Positions 2,691 to 64,000 of a stretch of 64,000 nt of DNA are shown here, one piece after another. The notes beneath the pieces are model-generated. The model did no database searches. It was not told the DNA's origin and was given only the letters and a program-made list of their open reading frames with translations. Both the position numbers and the translations under genes were made by a program. The stretch comes from Eubacteriales bacterium (GTDB taxonomy: Bacteria > Bacillota > Clostridia > Oscillospirales > CAG-272), in assembly GCA_045659245.1 (NCBI GenBank), contig JAZOWN010000066.1, positions 2,213-66,212 of the forward strand, written 5' to 3'. Position 1 is the stretch's first letter, and every line of letters starts with the position of its first letter.

Positions 2691-2723
2691 CGCGTTGCCA
2701 TAAGGACTACCCTTTTACCGTAT

Positions 2724-2822
2724 GAAGCGGGATGCAGACTACGAGCCGCAAATCAAATGATTTTTCGTCCCATGGACAACTCCCCGTCCCACAGGCACTT
2801 CACGCTCGTGATCTTACTCTTC
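2724..2822 (-). promoter_or_regulatory. THF (folT-motif) riboswitch
   Basis: Minus strand GAAGAGUAAG...GAGCGUG...GGGACG...GGACGAAA...GCGGCUCGUAG..UGCAUCCCGCUUC. These blocks match the conserved AGAGUAG / GCGU / GGGA / ACGAA / UGCAUCCGCU blocks of the E. siraeum THF aptamer, with a closing P1 GAAG/CUUC. Confidence 0.75.
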
Positions 2823-2837
2823 TACAATTACGTATTT

Positions 2838-35038: not shown

Positions 35039-35509
35039 CTAAGCCTCGGTGTGTCTGCCGAGAAAGCCTGCGGCTGTTTGAATGAGCTTGGCTTCCGCAT
35101 CAACCCCAAATACATTATCCCTTTGAGGTTTATCAGCTTCGCTGTCGGATACTGATGCAACACAGCCGATAACGTCTCCCTCGCTTATAATGGGCATAGC
35201 ACATCTTACAAAATGATTTTTGGAGTCGGCAATAACGGGAAGCTTGTCCGTACCCTCTCGCCAACTGTAAAAACCCCTGCCCTCAATAATTTTTTCGATC
35301 TCCTCGGATAAGTTCTTATCGGTATATTCCTTTTTGGAAACACCCGCGCTTGCAATGACCGCATCTCTGTCACTGATTATGACGGAAAGGTTGCAGGTCT
35401 TGTAAAGCGTTTCTGCGTACTTTGATGCGAAGCTTGACAACTCGCCTATGGGAGAGTATTTTTTGAATATGACCTCTCCCTCTCTGTCGGTATATATTTC
35501 AAGCGGGTC
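35039..35509 (-). pseudogene. spoVT: spoVT 3' fragment (about codon 32 to stop) detached from its 5' end by insertion
   Basis: 156 aa DPLEIYTDREGEVIFKKYSPIGELSSFASKYAETLY...PIISEGDVIGCVA...IQTAAGFLGRHTEA. These align by eye with B. subtilis SpoVT from D32 to the C-terminus. The AbrB-type first ~31 codons are missing here. Confidence 0.8.
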
Positions 35510-37270
35510 AACCACGCTGACAACATTGACGCGAAAAACCTTGTCGTGCTGCTTATTCGCACGCTGGACTACCTTGATTTCATAGAAATCTTCGGTTTTT
35601 TCGATATTTTCCGCGTCCTGATCAAAATTTACGGGTATCTCGCTTTCTGTATCGCCAATATTTGCGATCGTTCCGGTTCGGAGTAGCTCGTCCACCTCGG
35701 CTCTTAGCTTGACCTCGATATGATCCTCAAAAACAACCATATGGCTGATAATCAGGTTAATGTCGTTTTTGTCAAGATGATCCTTTTCGAGAATCTCGTT
35801 GAAAACGTCGATGACGGTCTTGGCTACACGGTTGACACGAATCATCGTATTGGTTGTGTCAGATGCCAGCTCAAGCTGATGATGCAACCCCTCAATGTGA
35901 TTCTCGGACTTTTCGATCTCAACGTCGTAAGCCTCTACCGTAACCGAATTTTCCCCGGATTTTGCCGCCGCCTTTGCGCGTTGCTTGACGAGTGAACGCA
36001 AAACCTCGCGCTCTTCTTCAATCTCTTCCATCAGCGCAGCAATTGCATTCTTTCCGGAATCCATGTGCTTCGGTTCGTTCTTGATGACCTCCTCCAGTAT
36101 CTTAATCATAGAGGCAGAGTTATCACGGACCTTTCGGATATACTCCTTTAGCACCTCATCAAGAAAATCAACGTCAACCTTATGGGTTGTGCATCCGCTC
36201 TTCAAGCCGCGTCTGTGATAGTTACCACAGATATAGGAACGGCTCAGGTTCTCTCGGTTTCTGGCAAACATCGGTGCGCCGCAATCACCGCAAACAAGAA
36301 ATCCAGAATAGTTATTTTCGTTTTTCTTGATGCCGCGGTAGTGCGCCTTTGCCCTTAGCTTCAACTGCTCCTGCACCGTCGTAAACGTGCGATAATCCAC
36401 AATGGGCGTGTGGAAATTCTCGAACACAATCTGCTCACTTTCGTGAACAGGAACCATCGGTCCATTGATGGTCTTGCGCTGATACTTTCTCGAGCGAAGC
36501 GTTCCGATATAAAAATCGTTTTTCAGAATCTCTCCCACCGTCTGGATGCTCCAAACATCCTTGACCACTGCGTGATACTCATCTCCCATCGCCTCCTTTC
36601 GAGCCTTTTCTCGCATTCTGGCTGTGGGGATTTTTTGCGCGGTTAGGTGTTCGGCAATCTTCTTGTAGCCCCAACCGTTTATGTAGAGGCGGAAAATCTC
36701 GCGAACCACCTCGGCGGCGGGCTCGTCAACCTCGTAGATCATCTTCTTGGTGTTCTTCATTACGTAGCCATAAGGTACGGAACAAATCCACTCTCCGCGC
36801 TGCTGACGGCTCGCAATAACTGCCGAGACCTTTTCACTGGCATCGGTTACGGGCATTTCGTTGAACATGAAGAACATCTTCGTCTTCATAAGATCGCCCT
36901 TCTTCATAGAGTTCGTGTCAAGCGAATCTCCAATCGAAATAATGCGAAGCCCAAGCTCCATAAAATCCTCAAACTCGGACATGCCCTTGCTGAGTCTTCT
37001 TGAAAAACGGCTCAGATCCTTTACGATTAAAATATCATACTCACCGTTTATCAGCTTTGGTCTCAGCTCTCCGTGATAACACGGACGCTTTTCAAAGCTG
37101 TATCCCGACTTATCGCGGTCTTCAAAGTAATCAACCGTACTCGTGGGAAAGTGAAGCTTGCAATACTCGTCAATGATTGCCTTCTGGTTTTCAATACTCG
37201 TATTCGTTCCGTTTCGCTCTTCATCGACCGAAATACGGGTATAAGCGGCAATTTTGTATCTTTCCACCAT
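35039..37270 (-). CDS. large serine recombinase (resolvase + recombinase + zinc-ribbon + DUF4368-like regions), reading in frame into the spoVT 3' fragment
   Basis: N-terminus AAYTRISVDEE...DRDKSGYSFEKRP...VKDLSRFSR (catalytic Ser/Arg pattern), Cys-rich zinc ribbon (CGDCGAP...CGNYHRRG), coiled coil, and DINLIISHMVVFEDHIEVKL. No stop codon before the junction at about 35510. Confidence 0.85.
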   Translation of the reverse strand: MVERYKIAAYTRISVDEERNGTNTSIENQKAIIDEYCKLHFPTSTVDYFEDRDKSGYSFEKRPCYHGELRPKLINGEYDILIVKDLSRFSRRLSKGMSEFEDFMELGLRIISIGDSLDTNSMKKGDLMKTKMFFMFNEMPVTDASEKVSAVIASRQQRGEWICSVPYGYVMKNTKKMIYEVDEPAAEVVREIFRLYINGWGYKKIAEHLTAQKIPTARMREKARKEAMGDEYHAVVKDVWSIQTVGEILKNDFYIGTLRSRKYQRKTINGPMVPVHESEQIVFENFHTPIVDYRTFTTVQEQLKLRAKAHYRGIKKNENNYSGFLVCGDCGAPMFARNRENLSRSYICGNYHRRGLKSGCTTHKVDVDFLDEVLKEYIRKVRDNSASMIKILEEVIKNEPKHMDSGKNAIAALMEEIEEEREVLRSLVKQRAKAAAKSGENSVTVEAYDVEIEKSENHIEGLHHQLELASDTTNTMIRVNRVAKTVIDVFNEILEKDHLDKNDINLIISHMVVFEDHIEVKLRAEVDELLRTGTIANIGDTESEIPVNFDQDAENIEKTEDFYEIKVVQRANKQHDKVFRVNVVSVVDPLEIYTDREGEVIFKKYSPIGELSSFASKYAETLYKTCNLSVIISDRDAVIASAGVSKKEYTDKNLSEEIEKIIEGRGFYSWREGTDKLPVIADSKNHFVRCAMPIISEGDVIGCVASVSDSEADKPQRDNVFGVDAEAKLIQTAAGFLGRHTEA

Positions 37271-37595: not shown

Positions 37596-37692
37596 ATAAC
37601 TCACCCCTTTCACTGAATTATTGACAATGATATGATTTTGTATTCAGATAATACTTATAGTAAAAACATTGGTTTTCGTTTATTCAAGCATT

Positions 37693-37721
37693 ATTATATC
37701 ATATAATATATTTTTTGTCAT
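37693..37721 (-). promoter_or_regulatory. promoter candidate for the 78-aa gene / recombinase unit
   Basis: Minus strand ATGACA (37721-37716), 17-nt spacer, TATAAT (37698-37693), in a very AT-rich context. Confidence 0.35.
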
Positions 37722-37777
37722 CGGCGCAGGTATGCCGAGAATGTGCAATATAAATTTCAAATATTTTATAACGCTGA

Positions 37778-44864: not shown

Positions 44865-45902
44865 TCAAACCGCCTCACGCATTATTTTAAGTTTCCTGCC
44901 CGTCGATGTCTGGACAAGCTCCTGATATATCTCGGGGTATTCCTTTTTAAGTCTTGCCGTATCGGTTCTGTTCTGTGTTTTTGTTACGTAATCAATAAGT
45001 ACTCTGCCATCGGGTGACTCAAACACACCGTGCTCGTGAGAACCCATTGCATCAATTATCCGCACTGAATGTGCTTCAATAGCCTCCTGTATTCTTTTTA
45101 TTTCTTTATTGTGCGCCTCAACTTCATCCTGAAGCGTTAAAATTCTTCTGATTGGCTTTGCGAATTTGCCTGAAAATTCTATTGTAGGAAGACTCGGATC
45201 ACTGACGGGATATATACGTGCCAAGGACTCAAGAGCAAGACCGGGATCAACGTCGTCCATATTGGGTGGCTTGTCCTTCTCCAAACTCCATATCCACTCC
45301 TCAAGCTTACTGAAAATTATCCCTTCCTTTACGCTATCTCTTTCTATGCAGGGATATGCATGATCCTTTTCGGGATTGTTGCCCCACACGGTGGAAAATG
45401 CGCCTATATTAACGTCTGCTACGGCAAGATAATATCTCAGCTGAAGCTCGTAATAAATAGGATATGCTCCCTTTGCCCACTCGTGAGCTTTATGATAACT
45501 ACAGCTTTTACACTCAAGTATGCCTTTTTCACCGTCACTCTTTCTTATATAGCGGCGGTCAAAATCTGCAAGCGCGTACGGAATGTCTGCGTGACGGTAC
45601 ATTATTTTATCGTCAATGACCTTATCGCCTGTTTTTCTTCCGTACCAATGAGCCGCTATGGGTTCAAGAAGATTACCCATTTCAAGCTGTGTCTCATTCA
45701 TTTTCTTGGCAGGACTCATCCTACCTTTCTTTATAAGCCAAAGTTCTTTTGGTGTTATCCACGGTGAAACTCCGAATATTGCCGCAATATCACTGCCGCC
45801 AACGGTATACGGAATATCTCCTCTCGGTCCGTGCATGCGGCATTCGAGCCAACGCTTTCGGGACATTCCCGTGGTATCACACAGCGGTATAGGTGCCGAC
45901 AT
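44865..45902 (-). CDS. YqaJ-like viral recombinase exonuclease (PD-(D/E)XK)
   Basis: TVGGSDIAAIFGVSPWITPKELW N-terminal signature. 345 aa. Confidence 0.75.
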   Translation of the reverse strand: MSAPIPLCDTTGMSRKRWLECRMHGPRGDIPYTVGGSDIAAIFGVSPWITPKELWLIKKGRMSPAKKMNETQLEMGNLLEPIAAHWYGRKTGDKVIDDKIMYRHADIPYALADFDRRYIRKSDGEKGILECKSCSYHKAHEWAKGAYPIYYELQLRYYLAVADVNIGAFSTVWGNNPEKDHAYPCIERDSVKEGIIFSKLEEWIWSLEKDKPPNMDDVDPGLALESLARIYPVSDPSLPTIEFSGKFAKPIRRILTLQDEVEAHNKEIKRIQEAIEAHSVRIIDAMGSHEHGVFESPDGRVLIDYVTKTQNRTDTARLKKEYPEIYQELVQTSTGRKLKIMREAV

Positions 45903-47044
45903 CAGTAATCCACCGGCTTTGCGAGATCGTAATCACGCCAATTCAGCTTCAAAGCGCGAGCCATACTCTCCTCAAGAGCAATAAGCTTACTTTCAGGAGT
46001 CTTGTCGCACTTCAACTGATACGGTATTTCCTGCAAAGCAAAGAAAACGTCGTGAGCAGTAGCCACACCACCGCCATAGGTCATCTCAAACCGCGAAATT
46101 GCTTCAACAGCCTGCTTTTTAGGCATAGCCAGTTTCTTGCAAATACGTGTCATGGCATTTATGGGATAGCTCAGAACTGTTTTCTCAAGCTCTTCGAGAC
46201 GATGAATACCGTCTTCGTATTGAGCAAATAGCTGTTCGAGGGCTTTTTCAAAGTCTGCAACCGTCTTTTTATTGCGATGATCTACATCAATACAACCACC
46301 TATGTTTATCGAATATCCGTTTCCAACCAGCAAAGCCGAAACCTTAGCTGAAGATATTCCTATATCCGATGTTGTAAATCTTACCCCAGGAGTCATACGG
46401 CGAATTATTCCGCCTTTGCCGCGAGACTCAAGCAATCTTGAATATGTGTCAAGAAGGTCATTTCGCTGGTCGGGCAAGCTCCAAGAAGCGCTTGTAATAG
46501 CATGGTCGCTATATCCGCTATTAAACTCATTGCCGGGGAAACGCTCATCAAGCTTTTGCTGTAAAGCGGTCAGAAGCTCCTTTATGGGCAATACCGAATA
46601 GTCTGATTCATCACCGGAATGAATAGCCGAAACCTTTTCGTCACGTATCAGCACCAGTGCGTCTGTTGTCGAAAGATTCAGACAATCGTTCACTACGCGA
46701 GCAAGAAGCGGACGCTCAAGTCTTGGCAGAGATGAGCCATTTATCTTTGCGCGGTCAAGCATAGTTTTGTATGCTGTTGATCGCATAGGATAAACATCGC
46801 CGCCAACGGCTATCGCAAGACCGAGGTTTTTTACCGTATCCTTAACTGCCTCCTCGCTTATCCCGAAAGCAAATCTGTCGGGGTTCAAGTAAAGTTCAGA
46901 TTCCTCATGCAAGGGTTCTACCTGAAGATCCTTTATCTTGCACCGAAACCATTTTGAATTTTCGTTTTGTTCTCTATGAAAGTTCATTATCATAGGGAAC
47001 GAATTGAAGGTTGTGGAATAATTATCCATACATACGTTTTGCAT
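45902..47044 (-). CDS. conserved phage/plasmid protein, possibly DUF932-like
   Basis: 380 aa, first gene after promoter/leader module A. The family assignment is a weak recollection only. Confidence 0.3.
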   Translation of the reverse strand: MQNVCMDNYSTTFNSFPMIMNFHREQNENSKWFRCKIKDLQVEPLHEESELYLNPDRFAFGISEEAVKDTVKNLGLAIAVGGDVYPMRSTAYKTMLDRAKINGSSLPRLERPLLARVVNDCLNLSTTDALVLIRDEKVSAIHSGDESDYSVLPIKELLTALQQKLDERFPGNEFNSGYSDHAITSASWSLPDQRNDLLDTYSRLLESRGKGGIIRRMTPGVRFTTSDIGISSAKVSALLVGNGYSINIGGCIDVDHRNKKTVADFEKALEQLFAQYEDGIHRLEELEKTVLSYPINAMTRICKKLAMPKKQAVEAISRFEMTYGGGVATAHDVFFALQEIPYQLKCDKTPESKLIALEESMARALKLNWRDYDLAKPVDY

Positions 47045-47082: not shown

Positions 47083-47120
47083 ATATATAACAAAAACCGC
47101 CAATCCACAGACTGACGGTT
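47083..47120 (-). terminator. second leader hairpin + U-run of module A
   Basis: Minus strand AACCGTC-N12-GGCGGTT followed by TTTTGTTATAT, about 70 nt upstream of the ATG at 47044. Confidence 0.45.
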
Positions 47121-47144
47121 TATGCTTTTATTTGCCTGTAAACG

Positions 47145-47184
47145 AAAAGTGCCAATATCACCCTTGGGCAATACTGGCACTTTT
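47145..47184 (-). promoter_or_regulatory. conserved leader hairpin of module A
   Basis: Minus-sense AAAAGUGCCAGUAU...AUAUUGGCACUUUU forms 14 bp including one G-U that pairs only in the minus-sense RNA. Its base is shared with the module B hairpin. Confidence 0.55.
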
Positions 47185-47221
47185 AAAATCTGATAAACTT
47201 TAATTATTCTTAGATAATTTT

Positions 47222-47310
47222 GATACTTTACGTAGATATTATACCAAAGAAAATTTACTCCGTCAAGGCTTTGCCTAAAGTTTGCGTACTATTGGCGTAA
47301 TATTGGCGAA
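47222..47310 (-). repeat. promoter/iteron module A (copy 1 of 2)
   Basis: Minus strand: 11-bp tandem repeats CGCCAATATTA / CGCCAATAGTA / CGCAAACTTTA (47308-47276), TTGACG (47266-47261), 17 nt, TGG-TATAAT (47243-47238), 5 nt, box CGTAAAGTATC (47232-47222). Confidence 0.8.
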
Positions 47311-47315
47311 ATACT

Positions 47316-47579
47316 TTAATATGGAACCATATCATTCATGAAACTCCAATTCTCGATGGGCAATTTCACAAAATCAGGATTATTGGCTTTACACACATCC
47401 TCTAATGCTTCGCGAATGCCACAACGGCTGCAAACGTATATATCTGCGCGCCTACTCAGCGCATTACGAAGAAGTGTCGGCGTCATTATGTCACCACACC
47501 TCGGGCAAGGTAAAATTTCTCCTGACTTTTGTCTCATGTAGTAATTTTTCACTATTTCGTTAGTACGTAAAAAACTCAT
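47316..47579 (-). CDS. small zinc-ribbon protein
   Basis: 87 aa with CPRCG...CSRCG. Confidence 0.5.
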   Translation of the reverse strand: MSFLRTNEIVKNYYMRQKSGEILPCPRCGDIMTPTLLRNALSRRADIYVCSRCGIREALEDVCKANNPDFVKLPIENWSFMNDMVPY

Positions 47580-57840: not shown

Positions 57841-57926
57841 TATTATTCCTCCTTGAAAGAAACATAGGACGCACACCACCCAAATTCAGATGATGTGCGC
57901 CCCTTGCGCTATTTACCTTTTGACCG

Positions 57927-58397
57927 TTACGTATCGAAGAATGCTCCGTTGCCAAACGCCTCAAAGCCCTGCCAATTTTCAGATTGCTTTTGTGTCTGCT
58001 TTGCTTCGGACGTTTCTTCTACGTTAGAGCCATTGTCAGAATTTTTGGCTTTTGATGCTCCTCCGCCAGCATAGCTGGCGGACGCAAGATACATAACGTA
58101 GCCCTCCTTTTCCTCTTTTGTGGTCTGATCCTGCCACGCCTCGATTTTCACCTCGCCCTTGAGATTTACCCAAGAGCCCTCCTTAAGCTGCATTCGTTTT
58201 ATCTGCTCGATAAGATCGGGGCGGTCTGTCTTGACCTGAAGGTTTACCCACTTGGTTTTATCGTCGGCTCTGGGATGATACATCTTTTTACCTACGCTAA
58301 ACCGAGCAAGGCTTCCCTTCTCTCCATCATTGAAACGAATTGTGGGGTTGCTGCCGTATCCCTTTGAGATGACGGCGTTTTCCAAAATAAGAAACAT
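57927..58397 (-). CDS. single-stranded DNA-binding-like (OB-fold) protein
   Basis: 156 aa with a beta-rich N-terminal ~110 aa, then a Gly/Ser/Gln-rich tail ending in aromatic/acidic residues (GAFFDT), as in SSB tails. First gene after module B. Confidence 0.45.
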   Translation of the reverse strand: MFLILENAVISKGYGSNPTIRFNDGEKGSLARFSVGKKMYHPRADDKTKWVNLQVKTDRPDLIEQIKRMQLKEGSWVNLKGEVKIEAWQDQTTKEEKEGYVMYLASASYAGGGASKAKNSDNGSNVEETSEAKQTQKQSENWQGFEAFGNGAFFDT

Positions 58398-58469
58398 AAT
58401 TTTTCCTTTCCGCAGTTTTTACTGCAATAAATATATTTTATTTCTCCCGAAATGTTCGGGCTGAAATCT

Positions 58470-58515
58470 AAGAAAACAAAAAGTGCCAATCAGCACATAT
58501 GTGCTAACTGACACT
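58470..58515 (-). terminator. conserved leader hairpin + U-run of module B
   Basis: Minus-sense AGUGUCAGUUAGCACAU/AUGUGCUGAUUGGCACU forms 17 bp (three G-U pairs valid only in the minus sense), followed by UUUUUGUUUUC. Confidence 0.6.
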
Positions 58516-58558
58516 GTGAATTAACTCGGATAAACTTTTATTGCTCAATGGCAAATAA

Positions 58559-58646
58559 GATACTTTACGCTCTTATTATACCAAATCTGAATGTATCCGT
58601 CAATAGCTTTCGCCAATGTCGGCGGAATATTGGCGGAATGTTGGCG
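58559..58646 (-). repeat. promoter/iteron module B (copy 2 of 2)
   Basis: Minus strand: CGCCAACATTC / CGCCAATATTC / CGCCGACATTG (58646-58614), TTGACG (58603-58598), 17 nt, TGG-TATAAT (58580-58575), 5 nt, CGTAAAGTATC (58569-58559). Same spacing as module A. Confidence 0.8.
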
Positions 58647-59303: not shown

Positions 59304-59360
59304 TAAAAAAATAAAGTACCGTAAAAAGCAAAGCAAAAACTCACTTTACCTTTTACGGTA
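59304..59360 (-). terminator. terminator of the DUF4160-DUF2442-XRE-58aa unit
   Basis: 10-bp perfect stem TACCGTAAAA / TTTTACGGTA (59317-59360), followed on the minus strand by CTTTATTTTTTT. Confidence 0.55.
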
Positions 59361-59362
59361 TA

Positions 59363-59391
59363 ATTTTATCATATTTTCTTTTGGTTGTCAC
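59363..59391 (-). promoter_or_regulatory. promoter candidate overlapping the terminator
   Basis: Minus strand GTGACA (59391-59386), 17-nt spacer, TAAAAT (59368-59363). The predicted TSS falls inside the terminator 5' arm. Confidence 0.35.
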
Positions 59392-59428
59392 TCGCGCGGG
59401 TGCGCCGACTTTACGCCTGATTTATGAC

Positions 59429-59607: not shown

Positions 59608-59814
59608 TTACACCGCCTTGATCTCTATGTCACATCCAAGGGCATAGATTACTTTCATCAAGGTATCCAACTGGGGCATTGCTTTCTTACTTTCTATGCG
59701 CGCGATCACTGATTGCGTAAGATGAGAAGCATCAGCGAGTTCCTTTTGCGTAAGACCTAATTCTTTACGTTTTTCAATTAAAGTATCAATGATTCTCGAA
59801 CACTGTTCAGGCAC
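59608..59814 (-). CDS. XRE-family HTH protein
   Basis: 68 aa: LGLTQKELADASHLTQSVIARIE. Confidence 0.75.
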   Translation of the reverse strand: MPEQCSRIIDTLIEKRKELGLTQKELADASHLTQSVIARIESKKAMPQLDTLMKVIYALGCDIEIKAV

Positions 59815-60397: not shown

Positions 60398-60430
60398 CTT
60401 TGCTGTCCTCCATTATTATTTCTTTTTTAT

Positions 60431-60475
60431 ATTATATCATACTTTTTAATATCGGTCAATAGCGAATTCGCTATT
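60431..60475 (-). promoter_or_regulatory. promoter with overlapping 18-bp perfect palindrome operator
   Basis: Minus strand TTGACC (60459-60454), 17-nt spacer, TATAAT (60436-60431). The palindrome AATAGCGAATTCGCTATT (60458-60475) abuts and overlaps the -35. Confidence 0.6.
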
Positions 60476-60509
60476 TATTTCAAATAGCTCTATATCAAAC
60501 GATTATTCC

Positions 60510-60539
60510 CCTCTGCGATTTAAATATAAATCGCAGAGG
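60510..60539. other. isolated perfect 13-bp stem / 4-nt loop hairpin
   Basis: CCTCTGCGATTTA-AATA-TAAATCGCAGAGG. No U-run on either strand. Confidence 0.5.
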
Positions 60540-60693
60540 ACCTGTTATGAAAAAAATGATGCTATATATGTTATTAAATTTTAAAAATAAGCCTCTCACA
60601 AATAAACATTTTTTAAAAATGTTATTTTTTTCAAATTTTTTCTAATCTCGATTGTTATATATTAATGAATACTGTAGAAAGGAGGAAAATAAA

Positions 60694-61101
60694 ATGAAAA
60701 AAGCTATTATTGCAATGCTTGCTGTCATATTGTTGGTTTCTTGTGTAGTACTCCCGGTCAGTGCCGCTGAAACTGAAACAGTTATACAGCCCAGATGGTC
60801 AAATATTGCCAGCATAGATGTTACGCTTACGGTTATTGATGGTGTAGGTCACGCAGATTGTGTAAGTTCCGCACAATTCGGCTCAACATCAATCCAAACT
60901 GATATTTACGTATATGAATATGTTGGAGATGAATGGGTATACATAACAGAAATGCACGACATAAAGTATAAGATTGTCTCTGGTGTGTGCTGTACATTCC
61001 CTGCACGAAGCAACGGCTATTATTGTGCAGTGTATACATTCACGATGGTTAAATCAGGTGTTCCCGAAACCGTAGAAAGAATTGCATACTATAACGTATA
61101 A
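60694..61101 (+). CDS. secreted protein of unknown function
   Basis: 135 aa from the ATG after AAAGGAGG. Signal peptide MKKAIIAMLAVILLVSCVVLPVSA followed by a beta-rich mature part. Confidence 0.5.
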   Translation: MKKAIIAMLAVILLVSCVVLPVSAAETETVIQPRWSNIASIDVTLTVIDGVGHADCVSSAQFGSTSIQTDIYVYEYVGDEWVYITEMHDIKYKIVSGVCCTFPARSNGYYCAVYTFTMVKSGVPETVERIAYYNV

Positions 61102-61133
61102 AAAAAGTGGTGGCTTGATAATCAAGCCACCAC
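61100..61133 (-). terminator. terminator between convergent genes
   Basis: GTGGTGGCTTGAT (61107-61119) pairs with ATCAAGCCACCAC (61121-61133), followed on the minus strand by T7. Confidence 0.7.
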
Positions 61134-61139
61134 ATACCT

Positions 61140-61937
61140 CTACTGTAATATTAGACCTTCAGCTACTTTTATTATTTCATTAATACTAGAAAACTCGCCC
61201 ATTATTCTATACTCATATTGATTGTCTTGCCATACTATAGTGTAGACGCTCGTATTACTTAAATCCTTTGTAATTATTGCATCATAATTATTTATACTGG
61301 TTTTATAAATTTCTTGAGATTCTGAATTAGTCCAATGTAATTCTGAAGTTATAACATTTTGAGAAAGATAAAAAATGCAATTCTCTTCATAAAGAAAACT
61401 AACCACATAATATGTTTCATCTTCAAAATCAACTACCATATCATATTCTCCTGGTAAATATGATAAAGTTGCCTTCTTCGTTATAGTTGTAGGATAAACA
61501 ATACTTTCTGCTGTAGCCTCGTTATTTTCAGAATTTTTTGTTTCTGTCATATTTGCTTCTGTTGTATCCATACTGGGTTCTATAAACTCGTATTTAGGTT
61601 GACTACCGTCATTATCACCAAATCCAATTGCAATATAATCTTCATACCACTCCACCAAAAATGCTTTTATTGCATTCCTTATCTTGGGGATAGACACACA
61701 TGCGGTAAGAGCTATAACAACAGATATAATACAAGCTACAGCAATCCATTTTGTAGCAATTGTTTTTCTTTTGCCGCCTGAAATATATCCTTTTGCAATT
61801 CTATTCATTCTTTTTTGCTGTGAAGGAGTGATCTCAAATCCTGTACCGTCAACATTCAAAAACTCGTCTGCCATTTGATCGCAACTTTTTTCAGCAGCAG
61901 CATACATAAGCAGTTCAAAATTATTGTATGTACTCAC
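61140..61937 (-). CDS. single-pass membrane protein, putative anti-sigma factor (DUF4367-like)
   Basis: 265 aa, overlaps the sigma gene stop. Cytoplasmic N-terminus, TM helix WIAVACIISVVIALTAC and an extracytoplasmic C-terminus. Confidence 0.45.
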   Translation of the reverse strand: MSTYNNFELLMYAAAEKSCDQMADEFLNVDGTGFEITPSQQKRMNRIAKGYISGGKRKTIATKWIAVACIISVVIALTACVSIPKIRNAIKAFLVEWYEDYIAIGFGDNDGSQPKYEFIEPSMDTTEANMTETKNSENNEATAESIVYPTTITKKATLSYLPGEYDMVVDFEDETYYVVSFLYEENCIFYLSQNVITSELHWTNSESQEIYKTSINNYDAIITKDLSNTSVYTIVWQDNQYEYRIMGEFSSINEIIKVAEGLILQ

Positions 61938-62503
61938 TTTACATTCCTCCCTGCCTTCAGCTTCTCTTTTAGGATCTTCTTCGCTCTGAAAATACGACCG
62001 TTAACCGTATTTGTAACAACCCCAAGCATTCTTGCAATGTCAATATTTTTCATATGCATGTTGTATTTTAAAAGAATTGGAATTTTATACATATCATCCA
62101 ATTCATTAATCGCTTTGGCTAGAGCATCTTTATTTTCTTCGGTTACTGAAATATCAAATAACGAACTTTCTTCTGTCGTATTTTCATCACAGATACACTC
62201 TATATCCTCACCGGAGGAAAACATTTCACTTTTACGCTGATTTCTTCTATAAATGTTAATTGCCTTACTTCGTACACATACAAAAATCAAACTAATTGTT
62301 TTCTTGCTTTTATAATCAACAAAATTTTCCGCATGCTCACAGATATATTTCATTACTTCCATAGCTGCATCTTCGGCATCTTGCTTATTATTTAAGATAC
62401 TGTAAGCGACACTCTCCATTTTAGGAAAGTATCTTTGAAATATTTCGTTTACCGCATATCGCTCATCATCCGTTTCGATAATTTGCATTAATTCCAGTAT
62501 CAT
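61934..62503 (-). CDS. ECF-type sigma-70 family RNA polymerase sigma factor
   Basis: 189 aa with region 2 (SILNNKQDAEDAAMEVM) and a region 4 HTH (MKNIDIARMLGVVTNTVNGRIFRAKKIL). Confidence 0.7.
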   Translation of the reverse strand: MILELMQIIETDDERYAVNEIFQRYFPKMESVAYSILNNKQDAEDAAMEVMKYICEHAENFVDYKSKKTISLIFVCVRSKAINIYRRNQRKSEMFSSGEDIECICDENTTEESSLFDISVTEENKDALAKAINELDDMYKIPILLKYNMHMKNIDIARMLGVVTNTVNGRIFRAKKILKEKLKAGRNVK

Positions 62504-62514
62504 ACGAACACCTA

Positions 62515-62877
62515 TCAGTCAGGAAGATTTACTTCGAGCTCTATATGCGCTTCAATTCGTCTCAACTGCTCATCTGATGCTTTCTCTAATTTTCGAGATA
62601 TGCTATTATATATAACATTGGGATCGTGAGCTGTAACATAATCATATAACAACTCATCTGCTGAAATATTTAACGCATTTATAATTTCAATCAATGTTTT
62701 AAAACTTGGATATTTGTATCCCGCTTCTATTTGACTTATAAAATTTCTTTCGACACCGACACAGTTTGCTAATTTTTGCACAGATATTCCCTTTTCTTTT
62801 CTTATAGCTTTAATCCGTATTCCCAGTGCCTTCGGAGTGATATTATTTGCGCGAAGCTCTTTATTTCTTTTTGGCAT
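62515..62877 (-). CDS. XRE-family HTH regulator
   Basis: 120 aa: IKAIRKEKGISVQKLANCVGVERNFISQIEAG. Confidence 0.75.
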   Translation of the reverse strand: MPKRNKELRANNITPKALGIRIKAIRKEKGISVQKLANCVGVERNFISQIEAGYKYPSFKTLIEIINALNISADELLYDYVTAHDPNVIYNSISRKLEKASDEQLRRIEAHIELEVNLPD

Positions 62878-62951
62878 ACTATTCTCCTGTAGTTTTTTTA
62901 TATACTAATAGTATAATACCGCTTTTCAAAATACGCTACAAACTGCAAGAT

Positions 62952-62978
62952 AATATTGTTACTGTCAGTAACAATATT
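62952..62978. promoter_or_regulatory. 27-bp perfect palindrome (operator candidate) upstream of the XRE gene
   Basis: AATATTGTTACTG-T-CAGTAACAATATT: 13-bp arms around one central base. Confidence 0.6.
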
Positions 62979-62994
62979 GTGTTTTATTATTAGC

Positions 62995-63111
62995 ATACCA
63001 TCTTAATTTTATATAAAACTTCAATATATATTGTTTGGTTAAAGATACTTTTCGTACAGCAACCGAAAAAAACATGAATATACATGTTTTTTGGTTGCTT
63101 ATTTTTTTTTT
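62995..63111 (+). ncRNA. candidate small RNA ending at an orphan strong terminator
   Basis: Plus-strand hairpin GCAACCGAAAAAAACATG/CATGTTTTTTGGTTGC (63059-63098) plus a T-rich run (63099-63111) with no plus-strand ORF upstream. A possible promoter CTGTCA-17-TATTAT (62962-62990) overlaps the palindrome. The 5' end is a guess. Confidence 0.3.
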
Positions 63112-63112
63112 G

Positions 63113-63139
63113 AAACCCTGACATATTTTGTCAGGGTTT
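63113..63139. other. second hairpin immediately after the T-run
   Basis: AAACCCTGACA-N5-TGTCAGGGTTT: 11-bp stem with no U-run. Confidence 0.45.
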
Positions 63140-63174
63140 AATGTTAAAATCACGATAGAAAGGAGGTGACGATT

Positions 63175-63540
63175 TTGAGTGCAGGAGACCGCCGTGAACG
63201 TTTATTAAGAATTTTAACTTTAAAAGGACATGCAACCATATCCGAACTCGCCAACGAATTGGAAGTATCCGAAAGAACAATTATGCGCGATATAGAAGTT
63301 ATTAGTTTTGAAAAACCTATTTTTACTGTTATGGGCAAAAATGGGGGAGTTTACATAGATAATTACTATTTATTAAATCAACTACATCTTAAAGCACACG
63401 AGATTGACTTGTTATATAAGATTATTTTCGATATTGAAAATTACTCTTACTGCAGCCTTAATGAGTCGGAACTGAATCTGCTCAAAGAAATCGTCACCAT
63501 ATATTCTAAAAAAACATATAGAAAGGAAAAAACAAAATGA
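63175..63540 (+). CDS. HTH_11 (YafY N-terminal-like) regulator without a WYL domain
   Basis: RLLRILTLKGHATISELANELEVSERTIMRDIEVI...GKNGGVYI. Start placed at TTG 63175, 8 nt after AGGAGG (the tracked GTG lies inside the RBS). The stop overlaps the next ATG (ATGA). Confidence 0.6.
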   Translation: MSAGDRRERLLRILTLKGHATISELANELEVSERTIMRDIEVISFEKPIFTVMGKNGGVYIDNYYLLNQLHLKAHEIDLLYKIIFDIENYSYCSLNESELNLLKEIVTIYSKKTYRKEKTK

Positions 63541-64000
63541 AAAATTCAGAAAAACAATTATTTTTTAATCTTTGCTCTTTCATATCTCCTGACAAGGATA
63601 AAATAGGAGCACTCGTTGAAAACGGGGCTGCGACGCCGGAACTCATTGGGTATCTACTTACCAATCGCATGGGAGGCGTTGCATATGATGTTCTTATGAG
63701 AACAAGATACTTGGGTACAGTAGACAGAGAAATCAAAGGCTCCTTGAAGTGTGCAAGATTCTATTGTGAAAAGTACAATGAGGATTTCTTCGGATGCTTG
63801 AACTATCTGTCCACCCTTCTTGATGCCTGCGGAGCCCCATATGCGCTTCTAAAAGGAGCGTATCTGTGCGGAAAGTATCCTATTGGTTACCGTACTTCAA
63901 ATGATATAGATGTACTGATTAGTCCAGAGGACGTAGGAACGGTATCAGCAAAGCTCAAGCTGGCAGGATTTAAGCAGGGTTACATCAAAAACGGTAAATT
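63537..64000 (+). CDS. nucleotidyltransferase-family protein (NTP_transf_5-like), 5' partial
   Basis: My own translation is open to the window end: MKNSEKQLFFNLCSF...PYALLKGAYLCGKYPIGYRTSNDIDVLISPEDV, which resembles the uncharacterised nucleotidyltransferase family motif R.s.DiDlL. Not in the ORF track because it runs off the window. Confidence 0.55.
   Translation, partial: MKNSEKQLFFNLCSFISPDKDKIGALVENGAATPELIGYLLTNRMGGVAYDVLMRTRYLGTVDREIKGSLKCARFYCEKYNEDFFGCLNYLSTLLDACGAPYALLKGAYLCGKYPIGYRTSNDIDVLISPEDVGTVSAKLKLAGFKQGYIKNGK

Follow-up and report, generated by a model that had tools for sequence, protein, structure and literature searches.

The window analysed here, a stretch of 64 kb at its full length, holds one end of an uncharacterised integrated element. 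Between 35 kb and 64 kb every gene lies on the minus strand, and a large serine recombinase gene (35039-37270, minus strand) marks one end of the element. Two long operons are apparent. Operon B (58397 to 47316) opens with an SSB-like gene (57927-58397, minus strand, 156 aa) and continues with two small proteins, an AAA_5 ATPase, a vWA protein, a PcfK-like protein, DUF7666, a PcfJ-like protein and small zinc-ribbon proteins. Operon A (47044 to ~38500) opens with a gene for a 380-aa protein of an unannotated family (45902-47044, minus strand), followed by YqaJ, a RecD2-type helicase, two unknowns, a DUF3854 primase, a WYL protein and a LexA-like S24 protein. Public data contain over 1,500 relatives of the 380-aa protein at E<=1e-20, none of them functionally named, and related elements are spread over Lachnospiraceae, Oscillospiraceae, Ruminococcaceae and other gut Clostridia. 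Cultured bacteria with a related element include Schaedlerella arabinosiphila DSM 106076 (L006), Eubacterium sp. 14-2 (L013) and Brotocaccenecus cirricatena CLA-AA-H272 (L034). A protein scan of IMG/VR with the same 380-aa query gave no relatives, which indicates that the element is not a recognised virus, and PHROGs gave no useful matches for the element proteins. PLSDB returned a single, uninformative tblastn match at 22% identity, a metagenome scan with the PcfJ-like protein found one 5-kb locus only, which lacks the modules described below, and look-ups of three window proteins found no exact record. Among the Pfam domain matches of the element, none pointed to a Rep, Par or relaxase gene.

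Each operon is headed by a promoter module, as the initial annotation had recognised: module B precedes the genes from the SSB-like protein to an 87-aa zinc-ribbon protein, and module A those from the 380-aa protein through the primase and further. The minus strand carries both modules, and all coordinates of their parts refer to it. The core promoter of module A (47238-47266) consists of TTGACG (47266-47261), a spacer of 17 nt and TGgTATAAT (47246-47238), and that of module B (58575-58603) of TTGACG (58603-58598), again 17 nt, and TGgTATAAT with the -10 at 58580-58575. A promoter scan gave 11/12 matches plus an extended -10 TG for each, and both of these predicted promoters have the hexamers and the 16-18 nt spacing of the sigma-70/SigA type. 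Upstream of the core lies an array of 11-bp units that read CGCCAAyaTTn on the sense strand. In module A (47270-47308) four units start in exact 11-bp steps at 47308 (CGCCAA), 47297 (CGCCAA), 47286 (CGCAAA) and 47275 (GGCAAA), and the array ends 3 bp 5' of the -35. Module B (58611-58646) has three units, starting at 58646 (CGCCAA), 58635 (CGCCAA) and 58624 (CGCCGA), together with an inverted TTGGCG at 58616-58611. Arrays with a period of 11 were called by Tandem Repeats Finder at 47284-47313 and 58621-58646. The pattern GCCRA-N6-GCCRA occurs four times in the 64 kb, against 0.49 expected, with three of the four inside the modules, and module B is the sole place in the window with at least three TYGGCR/YGCCRA hexamers per 40 nt. 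On the other side of the core, 5 nt 3' of the -10, both modules carry the same 11-mer, CGTAAAGTATC (box1; 47222-47232 in A and 58559-58569 in B), which is found as an exact copy nowhere else in the window.

The likeness of the two modules (178 nt, 72% identity, E=1.2e-16 by blastn within the window) continues for ~95 nt into the transcribed leader, as far as the U-tract of a terminator. Some details of the earlier description change as a result of closer comparison. The modules had been said to share the same parts in the same order and with identical spacing; parts and order hold, but the gap between array and -35 differs by 1 bp, the distance from unit 3 to the -35 being 20 nt in A and 21 nt in B. 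Three to four tandem repeats had been counted per copy, and an 11-bp phase is indeed common to both, but copy A is made up of two good and two degenerate units. The invariant box after the -10 is an exact 11-mer at both modules as described, but it is better viewed as the first element of the transcribed leader.

That leader is built in the same order in both modules, with box1 (AGTATC), a hairpin P1, box2 (CAGTTtATC.GAGTT), a terminator hairpin T1 and a U-tract. Box1 would occupy about +1 to +10 of the predicted transcript and its nAGTWTC core about +4 to +9. In module A, P1 (47202-47219) pairs AATTAT with ATAATT; family-wide its sequence is variable and its pairing is kept. It is followed by box2 (AAAGTTTATCAGATT, 47187-47201), which is predicted to be single-stranded, and by T1 (47140-47184), where the hairpin base AGUGcCA/UGGCACU precedes UUUUCGUUU. 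Further downstream are a second terminator-like hairpin, T2 (47084-47121; AAACCGTCAG..TGGCGGTTT plus TTGTTATAT), and a small hairpin (47078-47066) 5' of the ribosome-binding site of the 380-aa gene. The hairpin of T2 lies at 47121-47094. In module B, P1 (58538-58558; TTATT-T-GC/GCAATAA) is unlike copy A in sequence, box2 is AAGTTTATCCGAGTT (58523-58537) and T1 (58472-58515) is AGTGTCAGTTAGCAC..GTGCTGATTGGCACT plus TTTTGTTTTC. The box2 pattern common to the A and B leaders is AAAGTTTATC.GA.TT. The downstream part of the B leader (58411-58467) contains a bipartite hairpin (58467-58440) and another hairpin (~58426-58411) just 5' of the ribosome-binding site. An intrinsic terminator (57856-57903) then follows the SSB-like gene, 5' of the next ribosome-binding site, and was called by the scan at 57903-57866. 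Both leaders fold far better than shuffled sequences (z = -6.5 for A and -4.8 for B), T1 of B and T2 of A being called as intrinsic terminators by scan and T1 of A by RNAfold. A sigma-54 reading of the TGGCAC in T1 was ruled out by inspection, there being no TTGC at the right spacing.

The main feature at the head of both operons is a conserved promoter-leader-terminator cassette that lies outside Rfam. When the whole window was compared with Rfam 15 at the gathering threshold, the sole match was a THF riboswitch at 2723-2823, with none at the modules, and scans of both modules at E<=10 gave a best score of 22 bits against a gathering score of 60, which is chance level. A genome scan with the vWA protein yielded 38 related loci in gut Clostridia at 40-71% identity, and nhmmer with a profile of nine leaders found ~48 leader copies (E<1e-3) in loci L004-L041. 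All of these copies are on the gene strand and they occupy two syntenic positions, one 5' of the SSB-like gene and the other 5' of the 380-aa gene; in L005 a third copy of the cassette heads an upstream operon of small genes. An element carries 2-3 cassettes, in the sense orientation and at operon heads. The 5' part of the family reads gGATTGAC(T/G), 17 nt, TGnTATAAT, ~10 nt, nAGTWTC and P1, and the 3' part, from P1 onwards, CAGTT(T)ATC.GAGTT and then A(A/C)AGTGTCA...TGGCACTTTTTTTGTTT. This promoter architecture is kept across the ~48 copies and is always 5' of T1. The composite pattern TATAAT-N5-CGTAAAGTATC had three chance matches only in IMG/VR, all inside coding sequence.

Covariation was assessed on a structure-blind MAFFT alignment of 45 distinct leaders, which was used in place of an earlier MAFFT alignment of 9 leaders that was too poor for RNAalifold. 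Both P1 and T1 were recovered by RNAalifold from the larger alignment. Paired cells amount to 92.2%, compared with 75.0% after shuffling and 36-48% when the partners are slid by 1-3 columns, and double-change cells number 141, compared with 50 and 28-47, respectively; none of 500 shuffles matched any observed pairing measure. The upper part of T1 and the entire P1 covary freely, and the lowest 7 bp of T1 (AGUGUCA/UGGCACU) are almost invariant in sequence. T1 has the form of an intrinsic (Rho-independent) terminator, a covarying hairpin followed by a U-tract, in 45/45 leaders. Its base contains a U·G wobble in 37 of the 45 (columns 63/91), and such an abundance of U·G pairs indicates that the fold belongs to the sense strand. 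The spacing between the invariant half-sites of T1 varies among leaders, which favours a hairpin over a duplex operator. P1 differs in sequence between copies of one element, as in A and B of the window and also in L017 and L021, and so seems to be a structural spacer, with the linear boxes as the specific part.

A near-consensus promoter with a strong terminator ~90 nt further on is also the anatomy of a small-RNA gene, and a conserved, unpaired box2 is what such an RNA might use to act in trans. The cassette could then specify a transcript of ~85-90 nt, from promoter to T1, that serves as a regulator or decoy, with read-through into the operon being incidental. This explanation appears decidedly unlikely, as the cassette always heads the same two operons, which have no other promoter, and conserved structures continue beyond T1 to the ribosome-binding site. 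No complementarity to a target was found and no Rfam small-RNA family was matched.

The structures downstream of T1 are themselves conserved. A-type leaders contain T2 as a second terminator-like hairpin (AAGCCrGCAGTCC..GGCTTTTGTTATAT) and the small hairpin before the ribosome-binding site, and B-type leaders contain the bipartite hairpin and the hairpin at the ribosome-binding site. Directly 3' of the SSB-like gene, a strong hairpin and its U-tract (GGCGCACATG..CATGTGCGCCTTTTTT) are present at every related locus examined, and the ribosome-binding site of the next gene adjoins this terminator, leaving no room for a promoter. Terminators therefore stand in series within one transcription unit, T1 and T2 in the A-type and T1 and the post-SSB terminator in operon B. 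A structured, covarying leader that ends in a terminator would suit a riboswitch-like or self-sensing attenuator, in which alternative folds respond to a ligand, to temperature or to translation of a leader peptide. However, among 45 nascent-leader folds no conserved antiterminator partner competes with T1 for its 5' arm, the only pairs being local ones within the arm, and no conserved ATG or leader open reading frame was seen in the leaders. P1 is small and sequence-variable, Rfam gives no match, and the pLS20 zipper attenuator is set apart from the leader by its complementary antiterminator segment (PMC13401043). We regard self-sensing attenuation as very improbable. With neither an alternative fold nor a leader peptide, and with serial terminators that leave no room for a promoter, factor-dependent and probably processive antitermination is the most likely way of expressing these operons. 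The position of the promoter, always 5' of the terminator, likewise makes a need for antitermination most likely.

The arrays have a far narrower distribution than the leader. They are confined to the clade of the window and were found, besides A and B, in L004, L005 (three copies), L046, L049 and L050, giving nine distinct modules in six elements, with near-identical extra copies in L043-45. The initial annotation had made its regulatory reading depend on conservation of the repeats in homologous elements, and within this clade the units are indeed kept: all nine modules retain nGCCrAnwTTn at an 11-bp phase. Information per unit position peaks at GCC (2-4), A6 and TT (9-10) and is low at 7 and 11, a profile which indicates that unit and phase are both under selection. 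In ~30 more distant elements the promoter and leader are kept with no array, and coding or unrelated sequence lies 5' of the -35. The 11-bp arrays are a clade-specific addition; they probably form a second layer of control and probably serve as operator sites for a DNA-binding protein that reads TYGGCR half-sites. The proposal that a dedicated activator or repressor works through them draws partial support from units kept in homologous elements, but it would apply to one clade only, and a near-consensus core with an extended -10 does not need an activator. An array-bound repressor is more likely than an activator for the same reason, the core promoter being already close to consensus. The arrays sit 5' of the -35 and not over it, which is unusual for a simple repressor.

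In R1 parC, iterons of 11 bp are arranged around a promoter. Among the products of the element are a primase, a helicase and an SSB-like protein, and a hairpin with a sequence-invariant base resembles the recognition sites of primases and relaxases, so that the cassette might act as single-stranded DNA (a single-strand origin, a primase site, or a transfer or nicking site) or its units as replication iterons or a partition centromere. Against this, the distance from a duplex promoter to the hairpin 3' of it is fixed, a U-tract invariably comes after the hairpin, and the 2-3 copies per element are all on the sense strand at operon heads. Iterons or a centromere would be expected to comprise at least 5-10 units alongside Rep or ParR/ParM, whereas the arrays have 3-4 units each, occur at three promoters and are accompanied by no Rep or Par in Pfam scans; nor was a relaxase gene seen. 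A replicative, transfer or partition role has, in our estimation, only a slight chance of being correct.

The TYGGCR half-site extends beyond the two modules to a third type of promoter, P_C. In the window (59308-59428, minus strand) it consists of an operator at 59428-59380, TCGGCG-N6-CGCGAG, abutting the -35 GTGACA, 17 nt, TGaTAAAAT and a short leader with a terminator-like hairpin (59360-59317), and it lies 5' of small transmembrane-protein genes upstream of module B. P_C is found family-wide, 0.8-1.8 kb upstream of module B. The family operator has two or three (T)TGGCA units at an 11-bp phase and an inverted TGCCGA abutting the TGACA -35, followed by TGnTATAAT, an ATATCGT box and a short AAGUGGG..CCCACUU hairpin with Us. 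Its leader follows a logic like that of the module leaders, an (A/T)ATC box and then a hairpin with Us. A P_C-like promoter in the window (37690-37746, minus strand; TCGGCA-N6-CGCCGA-TGACAA, 17 nt, TGATATAAT) has no leader hairpin and precedes an 84-aa gene and the serine recombinase. The half-site is common to the arrays, to the P_C operator in at least 20 loci and to the window promoter at 37746-37690, and in the clade of the window the P_C half-site (..GGCG, compared with ..GGCA elsewhere) is the array half-site in opposite orientation. From these shared half-sites we infer that a single regulator binds TYGGCR and that modules A and B acquired its sites in the window lineage. The arrays would in this way tie the replication and recombination operons to the regulon of P_C and the recombinase promoter.

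Several element proteins were considered as binders of the arrays or as factors acting on the leader. Perfect co-occurrence with the arrays holds for one protein only, the 87-aa zinc-ribbon protein (47316-47579), and extends to the minimal array-bearing L046, an element limited to an integrase, a zinc-ribbon fusion, AAA_14, the module, the 380-aa gene, YqaJ and the helicase. The zinc-ribbon domain family is widespread and often fused, with 544 representatives, one of them fused to YodL. An earlier AF2 model of the 87-aa protein from a 5-sequence alignment (pLDDT 63) was too poor to use; a model with pLDDT 89 matches 'large polyvalent protein-associated domain 18' (LPD18) in BFVD (E=3e-6), and no significant PDB match was obtained by sequence or fold. 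The LPD18 match, the lack of a PDB match and the widespread, often fused domain make this protein a weak candidate only, LPD18 being a fold not known as a transcription factor. Homologues of the WYL, LexA-like and DeoR-HTH (110 aa) proteins were detected only in the near-identical element L043, and none was called on minimal L046; L004, L005, L049 and L050 end before the region where these genes would lie. Genes of the Xre-type HTH are often near P_C, which makes their products further candidates, and the window has two, an HTH_3 protein of 68 aa (59608-59814) and an HTH_19 protein of 120 aa (62515-62877). A 158-aa gene upstream of module B was ruled out as a Q-like regulator, since it encodes a protein with two transmembrane helices. 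No NusG/LoaP-, N-, Q- or ConAn1-like protein was found among the Pfam or PHROG matches of the element.

Whether the operons might instead be controlled at initiation alone deserves separate consideration. In such a scheme an array-bound regulator sets promoter output, and the hairpins serve only as terminators of the upstream operon and as mRNA stabilisers that impose a fixed partial attenuation, with high SSB and low downstream expression. No separate terminator lies between the upstream operon and either module, so T1 must end upstream transcripts too, and this suits the scheme, as do the conservation of arrays within the clade and a post-SSB terminator that could serve differential expression. 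Nevertheless most family members have the cassette with no array, and the promoter is always 5' of T1 and never after it. The sequence conservation of box1, box2 and the T1 base goes far beyond the needs of a generic terminator, and A-type leaders have two tandem terminators. Control by initiation alone is on balance unlikely, if less so than a small RNA.

Our results are best accommodated by a cassette of three layers with factor-dependent, probably processive read-through, on which the arrays were superimposed as clade-specific operators; judged from sequence comparison, we assign this reading a probability of about 0.5. The first layer, evident from the sequence, is a near-consensus housekeeping-sigma promoter with an extended -10. 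The second, established through conservation and covariation, is a structured 5' leader of ~90 nt, comprising box1, P1, single-stranded box2 and T1. In the third, expression of the operon would depend on regulated read-through of T1, of T2 in the A-type and of the terminator after the SSB-like gene. Box1-P1-box2, possibly together with the invariant base of T1, may form a recognition site resembling nut or put, and the part of the factor could be played by an element protein or by the leader RNA, acting on RNA polymerase. A point against the proposal is that each of the promoters seen in the core element comes with a terminator, leaving no obvious source for a first factor. As a simple alternative, T1 could be a leaky constitutive attenuator. 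A more specific and more tentative suggestion, to which we give somewhat less than an even chance, is that the cassette belongs to a new processive antitermination system of this large family of elements in gut Clostridia. A ~50-nt signal at each operon head would make RNA polymerase resistant to T1, T2 and the internal terminators, acting alone, as put and canT do, or with an element protein that may also read the invariant T1 base, and it would be combined with a TYGGCR initiation switch. The kind of regulation, leader termination and antitermination, is known; the signal is new, unusually compact and present in multiple copies. With its consensus, covariation and invariant terminator base, the ~90-nt leader provides a searchable marker for this family of elements, as well as a directly testable handle on a possibly new antitermination factor or RNA.

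Helically phased units that are bound cooperatively are known from ParR/parC of R1, from the 6+5 direct repeats of OmpR/PhoB and from the omega heptads of pSM19035. The arrays resemble these operators in having units one helical turn apart beside a promoter. They differ in comprising 3-4 units only, in occurring at three promoters and in a half-site that is also found as an inverted repeat at P_C, and the element has no recognised ParR/ParM, response-regulator or ribbon-helix-helix gene. At lambda PR', with its 6S RNA and tR', Q and qut provide an example of a short terminated transcript that is made unless a promoter-loaded factor permits read-through. The cassette has a strong promoter, a predicted short terminated transcript and DNA repeats of a protein-binding type adjoining the promoter, all reminiscent of Q/qut, and box1 would fit nAnnnT, the minimal -10-like pattern of a sigma-dependent pause element. 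Unlike Q/qut, most family members are without arrays, several cassettes are present per element and no Q-like gene was found.

A parallel in layout is lambda N/nut, in which a linear box and a hairpin form an RNA signal just downstream of each early promoter, at nutL and nutR (PMC11658703). In both systems a box-plus-hairpin signal is repeated after promoters and terminators stand in the path of each operon. The two show no similarity in sequence, however; the P1 loop is variable whereas the boxB loop is conserved, T1 comes directly after the signal, the host is a Firmicute and an N-like protein was not found. Other leader RNAs, from mobile elements or from operons, make RNA polymerase terminator-resistant, including HK022 put, B. 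subtilis EAR, canT of Tn916 and conAn2/ConAn1 of pLS20 (PMC11658703, PMC8191782). In Tn916, terminators insulate the element genes during the integrated state (PMC11658703, PMC8191782). Precedents in Gram-positive mobile elements exist in canT of Tn916 (PMC11658703), conAn of pLS20 (PMC8191782) and the pLS20 zipper (PMC13401043). The zipper-type attenuator of pLS20 (cATT) shares with the cassette a leader terminator that precedes the opening gene in a long operon of a Gram-positive mobile element, but contains complementary segments that form an antiterminator (PMC13401043), whereas the leaders described here have no conserved alternative pairing. Compared with put, EAR, canT and conAn, the candidate signal is only ~50 nt long, occurs 2-3 times per element, has no Rfam match and has a function that is predicted. 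If processive antitermination is indeed its role, a very short, multi-copy signal would join the small set of known systems, N, Q, put, EAR, canT and conAn.

A third promoter type of the element, P_C, lies on the minus strand at 59308-59428 and is family-wide, recurring in the related loci L005, L006, L008, L010, L013-L017, L021, L024, L025, L027-L030, L032-L034, L037 and L041. Its upstream part is built of 11-bp-phased TGGCA units and an inverted TGCCGA that adjoins the -35 TGACA; downstream comes a short leader that contains an (A/T)ATC box and an AAGUGGG..CCCACUU terminator-like hairpin. It stands before the genes for a small zinc-ribbon/transmembrane protein and for a two-transmembrane-helix protein of 158 aa. 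At 37690-37746 (minus strand), a P_C-like promoter (TCGGCA-N6-CGCCGA-TGACAA, 17 nt, TGATATAAT) is found immediately before an 84-aa gene and the serine recombinase. This placement suggests that the excision/integration genes too share the putative operator with half-site TYGGCR. At aa 610-742, the recombinase ORF (743 aa; 35039-37270, minus strand) closes with a complete SpoVT_C domain (E=1e-33). The insertion site of the element is probably within spoVT, the recombinase frame running on into the 3' portion of this gene, whose N-terminal part falls outside the window.

Within operon B, a strong intrinsic terminator (GGCGCACATG..CATGTGCGCC plus Us; 57856-57903, minus strand) separates the SSB-like gene from the gene that follows it. 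Its sequence is conserved in all examined loci that have an SSB-like gene.

The 87-aa CxxC..CxxC protein (47316-47579, minus strand) has no significant Pfam match by sequence, and its modelled fold corresponds to 'large polyvalent protein-associated domain 18'. The family is large, with 544 representatives at E<=1e-3; among its members are fusions to YodL-like domains and repeats within a 1995-aa protein. The 380-aa protein encoded by the first gene of operon A (45902-47044, minus strand) has more than 1,500 relatives in public data at E<=1e-20. These relatives are without a Pfam domain, and the fullest name among the 120 listed is 'hypothetical protein'.

Elsewhere in the window, a THF riboswitch (Rfam RF01831, 81.9 bits; 2723-2823, minus strand) belongs to the chromosomal part. 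The region 60400-64000 has a lower GC content (0.34) and holds a DUF4160/DUF2442 pair behind a plain consensus promoter (60459-60431), a secreted-protein ORF on the opposite strand, an ECF-type sigma factor together with its DUF4367 partner, and an Xre-type HTH gene. The region probably represents cargo, or else a separate module of the element.

L043, a 35.6-kb ENA scaffold, is a copy of the element (window 37-57 kb) with 99% identity by the 380-aa protein, and the two share WYL, S24 and DeoR-HTH genes. At its end L043 has tyrosine integrases in place of the window's serine recombinase, and thus the integration module has been exchanged. A minimal relative (L046-L048), which may represent a satellite-like derivative, adjoins a tRNA gene. 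Its single array-bearing module is accompanied by genes for a tyrosine integrase, a zinc-ribbon fusion of 161 aa, AAA_14/DUF4143, the 380-aa protein, YqaJ and a helicase of reduced length.
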